Positions 35,872-35,955 of a DNA stretch of 64,000 nucleotides are shown here, one piece after another. The position numbers were made by a program, and so were the translations under genes. The DNA comes from an uncultured Erysipelotrichaceae bacterium (lineage in GTDB: Bacteria > Bacillota_I > Bacilli_A > RFN20 > CAG-288), in assembly GCA_902772915.1 (NCBI GenBank), contig CACYCE010000022.1, positions 98,353 to 162,352 of the forward strand, in the 5' to 3' direction. Within the stretch, counting starts at the first letter, position 1; the number at the start of each line of letters is the position of its first letter. The notes below the pieces were generated by a model that worked only from the letters and a program-made list of their open reading frames with translations, was not told the DNA's origin and made no database searches.

Positions 35872-35955
35872 AAAACCATCGCACATGGAGCTTAGTCTTA
35901 AGGCTGCTATCTTCCGATCCTGACCTGGTTCGATAAAACTTCATCGCGATGGCGT
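35872..35955 (-). ncRNA. ffs: signal recognition particle RNA (small 4.5S/scRNA type)
   Basis: On the minus strand, the region reads ...CCAGGUCAGGAUCGGAAGAUAGCAGCC..., matching the universally conserved SRP helix-8 motif (CAGGUCAGGUCCGGAAGGAAGCAGCC in E. coli 4.5S). Terminal helix closes with 5'-CCAUCGC / GCGAUGG-3', then a UUUU tail. Lies next to tadA, as in many Firmicutes. Confidence 0.75.

Follow-up and report, generated by a model that had tools for sequence, protein, structure and literature searches.

The 4.5S RNA of Escherichia coli, encoded by the annotated gene ffs (b0455), is 114 nt long; RNase P removes its 5′ leader. The short SRP RNAs of the Mollicutes and related low-GC bacteria are approximately 77–100 nt in length and form a minimal hairpin with AT-rich helices that ends just past the distal site. 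In the established SRP cycle the RNA serves as the scaffold of the particle, its domain IV bound to the M domain of Ffh. FtsY docks early at the tetraloop, after which the NG-domain dimer moves to the distal site; a base of the RNA there stimulates hydrolysis of GTP, and SecYEG receives the cargo (PMC5454536). The SRP RNA gene of Bacillus subtilis (scr) is situated in the cluster yaaJ(tadA)-scr-dnaX-yaaK-recR (PMC10454642).

The window (the whole stretch of DNA analysed, 64 kb in length) almost certainly encodes, at 35875–35953 on the minus strand, a small SRP RNA of the 4.5S type belonging to an uncultured low-GC, PolC-bearing (Bacillota-like) bacterium with the standard genetic code; it is read as having its own promoter, a U-tract end, the function of its family and partial read-through into tadA. 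The gene, referred to here as ffs, is an ordinary member of a universally conserved and well-understood RNA family and is of an already known kind. It is an essential SRP RNA gene that is invisible to ORF-based tracks, and any Infernal/Rfam pass (e.g. PGAP-style) would call it. For the window itself it matters for annotation only, with a modest comparative value as a near-minimal SRP RNA (~79 nt) that still preserves the spacing from tetraloop to distal site. The only mildly new element is a widespread and very compact ffs-tadA(-dnaX) arrangement with its implied read-through, which concerns mostly other loci.

The SRP RNA gene and its predicted structure

The RNA gene comprises the following features:

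35868–35956, minus strand: match to the Rfam covariance model RF00169, extending 3 nt into the 5′ flank and 7 nt into the U-tail
35875–35953, minus strand: predicted mature SRP RNA of ~79 nt, a single extended hairpin from G35953 to U35875 (MFE structure identical to centroid; covariation)
35902–35925, minus strand: domain IV core GGUCAGG-AUC-GGAA-GAU-AGCAGCC (unique in the window; columns invariant relative to E. coli ffs and other homologues)
35881–35885, minus strand: distal-site motif UGUGC in the 3′ strand of the closing helix (aligned to the Rfam consensus UGC and to E. coli ffs)

Comparison of the 64-kb window with all 4227 Rfam families reveals RF00169 (bacterial small SRP RNA) as the sole family at or above its gathering score, which is 40 for this family; the match has 55.9 bits (E = 1.5e-9) and spans model positions 1–97, which is the full model, and the same scan gives no second SRP RNA match in the window. 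An author-built covariance model (R1) scores 74.4 bits at 35871–35950. The minus strand of 35868–35956 reads UACGCCAUCGCGAUGAAGUUUUAUCGAACCAGGUCAGGAUCGGAAGAUAGCAGCCUUAAGACUAAGCUCCAUGUGCGAUGGUUUUCUUU, and within it CCAGGUCAGGAUCGGAAGAUAGCAGCC carries the domain IV core. A degenerate pattern for this core (GGTCAGGNNCGGAAGNNAGCAGCC) occurs only once in the window even when three mismatches are permitted, with 0.01 occurrences expected from shuffles. The GC content is 46% at ffs and 33% for the window as a whole. The original prediction had placed an SRP RNA gene at 35872–35955 on the minus strand, upstream of tadA, from a domain IV match, a terminal helix and a U-tail, and had named Infernal as the check. 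The RF00169 match bears this out, with ends that differ by 1–4 nt; the core lies at 35902–35925, and the helix GCCAUCGCG/UGCGAUGGU at 35953–35875 is followed by the U-rich UUUCUUUAUUUAUU. Two snoRNA families (sn2524 and snoMe18S) returned by a permissive Rfam rescan of 34800–37000 are far below their gathering scores, are located in coding DNA, and were discarded as chance matches.

The hairpin has a minimum free energy of −26.5 to −27 kcal/mol (z of −2.9 to −3.4) with identical MFE and centroid structures, and none of 200 shuffles folds as stably. Its tip is the GGAA tetraloop (35912–35915), closed by a 3-bp stem (AUC/GAU); proceeding from there, the stem is followed by the symmetric loop CAGG/AGCA, the helix GGU/GCC, an asymmetric loop, two AU-rich helices and the closing helix (GCCAUCGCG.../...UGCGAUGGU). 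The 5′ side of the asymmetric loop is ACCA (35926–35929), immediately 5′ of the core. Domain IV as a whole (35899–35930) reads AACCA-GGU-CAGG-AUC-GGAA-GAU-AGCA-GCC, with the GNRA tetraloop, CAGG/AGCA and ACCA features all present. Its length falls at the lower end of the RF00169 range; in its alignment to the model the outermost 5-bp helix is deleted and five pairs are non-canonical.

Like E. coli ffs, the RNA is a single hairpin, and every domain IV position is identical between the two (ACCA, GGU, CAGG, the 3-bp stem, GGAA, AGCA and GCC), although the tetraloop stem of the window RNA is AU-rich (AUC/GAU), unlike that of E. coli. It is shorter (~79 nt versus 114 nt), lacking the E. coli segment beyond the distal site, and its transcription is predicted to begin at the mature 5′ end itself, unlike that of E. 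coli 4.5S RNA. In length, AT-rich helices and minimal hairpin it resembles, from general knowledge of that group, the short SRP RNAs of the Mollicutes type.

The UGUGC motif aligns with both the upper-case, conserved UGC of the Rfam consensus and GUGUGCC (nt 81–87) of E. coli ffs, in which G83, C86 and C87 make the distal-site contacts. G35884 is bulged in the predicted fold and is 28 nt 3′ of the tetraloop, the corresponding distance in E. coli being 27 nt, and UGUG is invariant in one of the alignments described below (A2). These alignments predict that the distal GTPase-activating site is present at 35881–35885.

As a member of its family, the ~79-nt hairpin would use its domain IV loops (ACCA and CAGG/AGCA) to hold the Ffh M domain and its GGAA tetraloop to capture the receptor, FtsY. 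The Ffh–FtsY GTPase dimer would then relocate to UGUGC, the distal site close to both ends of the RNA, where GTP hydrolysis would be triggered, and the nascent membrane protein would be passed to SecYEG. Ffh and FtsY are assumed as the partners; the SRP-GTPase motifs DTAGR and TKxDGxAxGG of ffh and ftsY products are absent from the six-frame translation of the 64-kb window.

Transcription signals and neighbouring genes

The flanks of the RNA gene contain the following features:

35983–35988, minus strand: weak −35-like hexamer TTCATT, 17 nt upstream of the −10 box (read by eye; putative)
35960–35965, minus strand: −10 box TATAAT of the putative ffs promoter (same distance in L052, the closest relative examined, and in most homologues)
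35861–35874, minus strand: U-rich tail UUUCUUUAUUUAUU immediately 3′ of the terminal helix, presumed tract of an intrinsic terminator
35826–35874, minus strand: ffs-tadA spacer of 49 nt (sequence and folding)
35340–35825, minus strand: tadA-like tRNA adenosine deaminase gene of 161 aa, the next gene downstream of ffs (Pfam, NCBIfam, motifs)

The TATAAT hexamer ends 6 nt ahead of the first paired base, and transcription is predicted to start at or next to G35953, so that the primary transcript would begin at or beside the mature 5′ end. Most transcripts would probably terminate at the U-rich tract past the closing helix. The −35-like hexamer matches TTGACA at only 3/6 positions. A consensus scan for promoters and terminators, whose rule calls for at least 4/6 positions at −35 and a terminator loop of 3–8 nt, gives no minus-strand signal at ffs, because the −35 is too weak and the long, interrupted SRP hairpin exceeds the loop limit. 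The promoter and tail signals were identified by eye, backed by comparison with homologues: a −10 hexamer with a match of at least 5/6 to TATAAT ends 3–10 nt (mode 6) before the RNA in 71/77 distinct RNAs, and at least six T are found within 9 nt past the helix in 57/77.

The 60-nt gap that separates ffs from a divergent 525-aa ORF (36017–37594, plus strand) has promoter-like sites on both strands (window 35955–36027). The plus-strand site (TAAACA—16 nt—TATTAT; 35955–35982) overlaps the −10 region of ffs on the minus strand. The sites look like back-to-back, overlapping promoters. The ORF has AAAGGA 8 nt before its ATG, unlike tadA, and encodes a protein with an N-terminal membrane helix that has no Pfam or NCBIfam match. 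It is followed by a 607-aa ORF (37663–39486, plus strand) with a lipoprotein-like signal (LTLSSC) and no Pfam family; its only match, to the M6 metalloprotease domain TIGR03296, is below threshold (64.7 bits versus 110.8).

The product of tadA matches the Pfam families MafB19-deam (104 bits) and dCMP_cyt_deam_1 (89 bits) above their cutoffs and carries the zinc motifs HAE and PCxxC; its best NCBIfam model is TadA, at 116 bits and below the equivalog cutoff of 150. The 49-nt spacer in front of the gene contains an AT-only, 8-bp hairpin (35852–35870) and a second TATAAT hexamer (35841–35846), and has no Shine-Dalgarno sequence before the tadA ATG. At its 3′ end tadA converges on a DUF2238 membrane-protein gene (34709–35362, plus strand), the two overlapping by 23 nt (35340–35362); serS is located beyond the DUF2238 gene, on the opposite strand to tadA.

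The window also encodes PolC, and has no tRNA or rRNA gene in its 64 kb. The 46 long ORFs end in TAA (36), TAG (9) or TGA (1; at 19156–20115, with a second stop directly after), and contain no in-frame TGA, with TGG at 8 per 1000 codons. A Mycoplasma-type code was considered and rejected, as none of the long ORFs gains additional coding sequence when TGA is translated as Trp. The organism uses the standard code, in which TGA is a stop (unlike in Mycoplasma and Spiroplasma), and makes almost no use of this codon. PolC, the 33% GC content, the standard code and the recurrence of TadA point to an uncultured low-GC, Bacillota-like bacterium and not to Mycoplasma or Spiroplasma.

Homologues, covariation and alternative readings

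At least 21 contigs from metagenomes encode the exact TadA protein. In six independent assemblies of this organism the 221 nt around ffs are identical, apart from one or two differences that fall within the tadA start or beside it; the RNA itself is invariant among the six while neighbouring positions vary. A TadA-anchored search with one genome per species gives 41 loci, the best with 48% identity, and the TadA lineage of the window thus seems to be poorly represented among one-genome-per-species GTDB contigs. Among the best of these relatives from named genomes there is no synteny with the window beyond tadA.

A strict regular expression for domain IV was dropped for these relatives in favour of Rfam scans, and of 19 TadA-anchored loci scanned in this way two have an SRP RNA within 10 kb of tadA. 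In an Erysipelotrichaceae MAG (L010) ffs is immediately upstream of tadA (58.2 bits; L010:9887–10492). In Clostridium sp. UMGS1781 (L028) RF00169 matches with 47.8 bits approximately 0.8 kb downstream of tadA (L028:10001–11344), the RNA being truncated by the contig end; this locus has a Bacillus-like gene order with a small-type SRP RNA.

A metagenome collection was searched with an adjacency pattern, validated locally, in which the domain IV core is followed after 101–161 nt by codons for TadA P-[IV]-G-A-V on the same strand. It gives at least 120 contigs in which tadA comes directly after ffs, compared with one of the 19 TadA-anchored relatives from named genomes; as adjacency is required, the count is not a frequency among all SRP RNA genes. 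The loci analysed are 80 (L049–L128) among the matches listed, and their contigs range from 22% to 57% GC. The downstream ORF is a deaminase of 133–310 aa with HAE and PCxxC in 79/80 loci. A covariance model built from 13 cleanly folding examples matches all 80 loci as well as the window, L010, L028 and E. coli ffs, with RNA lengths of 69–92 nt throughout the 80. Free MFE folding with 60-nt flanks was rejected as a means of placing the RNA ends, which it over-extends (up to 143 nt), and model-anchored ends are used throughout.

The helices covary. Double changes are present in 11/16 pairs of a four-sequence alignment (window, L010, L028 and E. coli), in 10/17 pairs of a second alignment, and in 14/17 pairs of alignment A3, which contains 80 distinct homologues. 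Standard pairs make up 93.6% of cells in A3 versus 29–49% with slid partners, a percentage that is somewhat inflated because A3 is fitted to the covariance model; none of 500 shuffles reaches the observed covariation. The support for the fold is safe despite this fitting because of the slid controls and the independent Rfam match. The 3-bp tetraloop stem covaries (AUC/GAU in the window, GCC/GGC in L052, UCA/UGA in L010). L052, whose SerRS is 79% identical to that of the window, shares the same derived layout, and its SRP RNA has compensatory changes (e.g. GCC-GGAA-GGC) with TATAAT at the same distance.

The hairpin directly before tadA could also be read as an element that resembles SRP RNA but serves mainly as a leader or attenuator acting in cis on tadA (a structured, terminator-bearing 5′ UTR), or as a decayed SRP RNA pseudogene, given that tadA is next on the same strand and that in most related loci its start codon is 5–29 nt past the hairpin and U-tract. 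This is very unlikely: all of the nucleotides known to contact Ffh and FtsY are kept, the covariation of the helices is that of an SRP RNA, strains do not differ in the sequence, the window has no other SRP RNA, and exact preservation of domain IV would serve no purpose in a leader. One RNA may have both roles, however, and a real SRP RNA whose terminator also throttles tadA forms part of the main explanation.

It is less likely still that the locus is a Bacillus-type large SRP RNA (RF01854; Alu domain present, ~270 nt) that was recognized by its domain IV part only, as might be suggested by the presence of PolC and by the scr analogue, which is of the large type. RF00169 is the best-scoring clan member at the locus and is covered in full, the terminal helix closes at 35953/35875, and all 80 related loci give RNAs of 69–92 nt. 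The upstream flank extends only 60 nt to the divergent ORF start at 36017 and holds TATAAT, and the downstream flank is 49 AT-rich nt to tadA; an Alu domain would not fit into these flanks, and the RNA is therefore of the small type. A chance match in AT-rich intergenic DNA, for which nothing speaks other than the short length of the element, can be set aside in view of the E-value of 1.5e-9 over the window and all 4227 families, the motif expectation of 0.01, the elevated GC content (46% versus 33%) and the compensatory changes in L052, L010 and 80 other loci.

The ffs-tadA(-dnaX) arrangement

The original prediction had likened the linkage of the SRP RNA gene and tadA to that in Bacillus, while remarking that ffs precedes tadA here. 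The remark is correct (ffs 35868–35956 and tadA 35340–35825, both on the minus strand). The likeness holds in part: as in the B. subtilis scr cluster, the SRP RNA gene adjoins tadA on the same strand, serS is in the neighbourhood, and dnaX follows in loci related to the window. The order tadA-SRP RNA-dnaX does not hold, and DnaX is not encoded in the 64-kb window (tblastn). The window differs further from B. subtilis in that its RNA is of the small type without an Alu domain, its gene order is ffs-tadA, tadA converges on the DUF2238 gene, and serS is on the opposite strand.

In related loci the neighbourhood is more complete. DnaX is encoded by the next same-strand ORF after tadA in 8/10 sampled loci (Pfam DNA_pol3_delta2, DNAX_ATPase_lid and gamma3) and follows tadA in 35/54 loci with enough downstream sequence; SerRS is encoded directly upstream on the same strand in 14/44 loci with enough upstream sequence. 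Among the adjacency-selected loci (serS)-ffs-tadA-dnaX prevails, which is how the Bacillus neighbourhood would read if ffs and tadA changed places. The compact ffs-tadA(-dnaX) unit is widespread, and its gene order permutes the tadA-scr-dnaX of Bacillus.

The compactness is seen in the spacers, which were measured with model-anchored RNA ends and with the tadA start taken 18–32 codons before the PIGAV motif. From the terminal helix to the tadA ATG the median is 21 nt (range 5–55 nt), with 70/76 spacers at or below 29 nt; the 49-nt spacer of the window is the third longest of the 76. The adjacency pattern could detect spacers to ~55–80 nt, longer ones being invisible to it, and therefore the clustering at 8–25 nt is not imposed by the search. 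An SD-like 4-mer precedes the tadA ATG in 39/77 loci, often right after the U-tract (e.g. ACUUUUUUUAUGGAGGAAUUAAAAUG).

Spacers as tight as these are too short for a promoter, suggesting that in such organisms tadA, and usually dnaX, are transcribed through the SRP RNA. For the window, some of the expression of tadA, if not all, probably comes from transcripts that start at the ffs promoter and read through, since the much tighter spacing of related loci requires read-through. An independent tadA promoter within the spacer is plausible as well because the spacer is long (49 nt) and has its own TATAAT and AT hairpin, and tadA has no Shine-Dalgarno sequence.

A broader proposal is made tentatively, as somewhat short of probable: in many uncultured low-GC bacteria, including the lineage of the window, ffs would be the promoter-proximal gene of a compact ffs-tadA(-dnaX) unit in which tadA, and usually the clamp-loader gene dnaX, are promoterless and expressed only by read-through of the closing helix and U-tract, with the SRP RNA acting as 5′ leader and attenuator for an operon of tRNA editing and replication and being released from the longer transcripts by processing. 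The layout suggests that many gut and rumen bacteria depend on read-through past the SRP RNA terminator to express tadA and dnaX; if true, the unit would offer a straightforward example, open to testing, of an operon led by a stable RNA gene. A description of it as a read-through operon was not found in the open-access literature. An analogous organization is that of E. coli thrU-tyrU-glyT-thrT-tufB, where a highly expressed stable RNA gene with a strong promoter is followed by a protein gene with no room for a second promoter, and expression of the protein genes in ffs-tadA(-dnaX) would similarly depend on read-through and processing. It differs in that the stable RNA is SRP RNA rather than tRNA, and in that ffs-tadA co-transcription is deduced from spacing only.

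Two of the related loci (L084 and L127) have unusually long TadA-like ORFs downstream of ffs, of 310 aa and at least 296 aa compared with the usual ~150 aa, which suggests either a fusion or an extended C-terminal domain.
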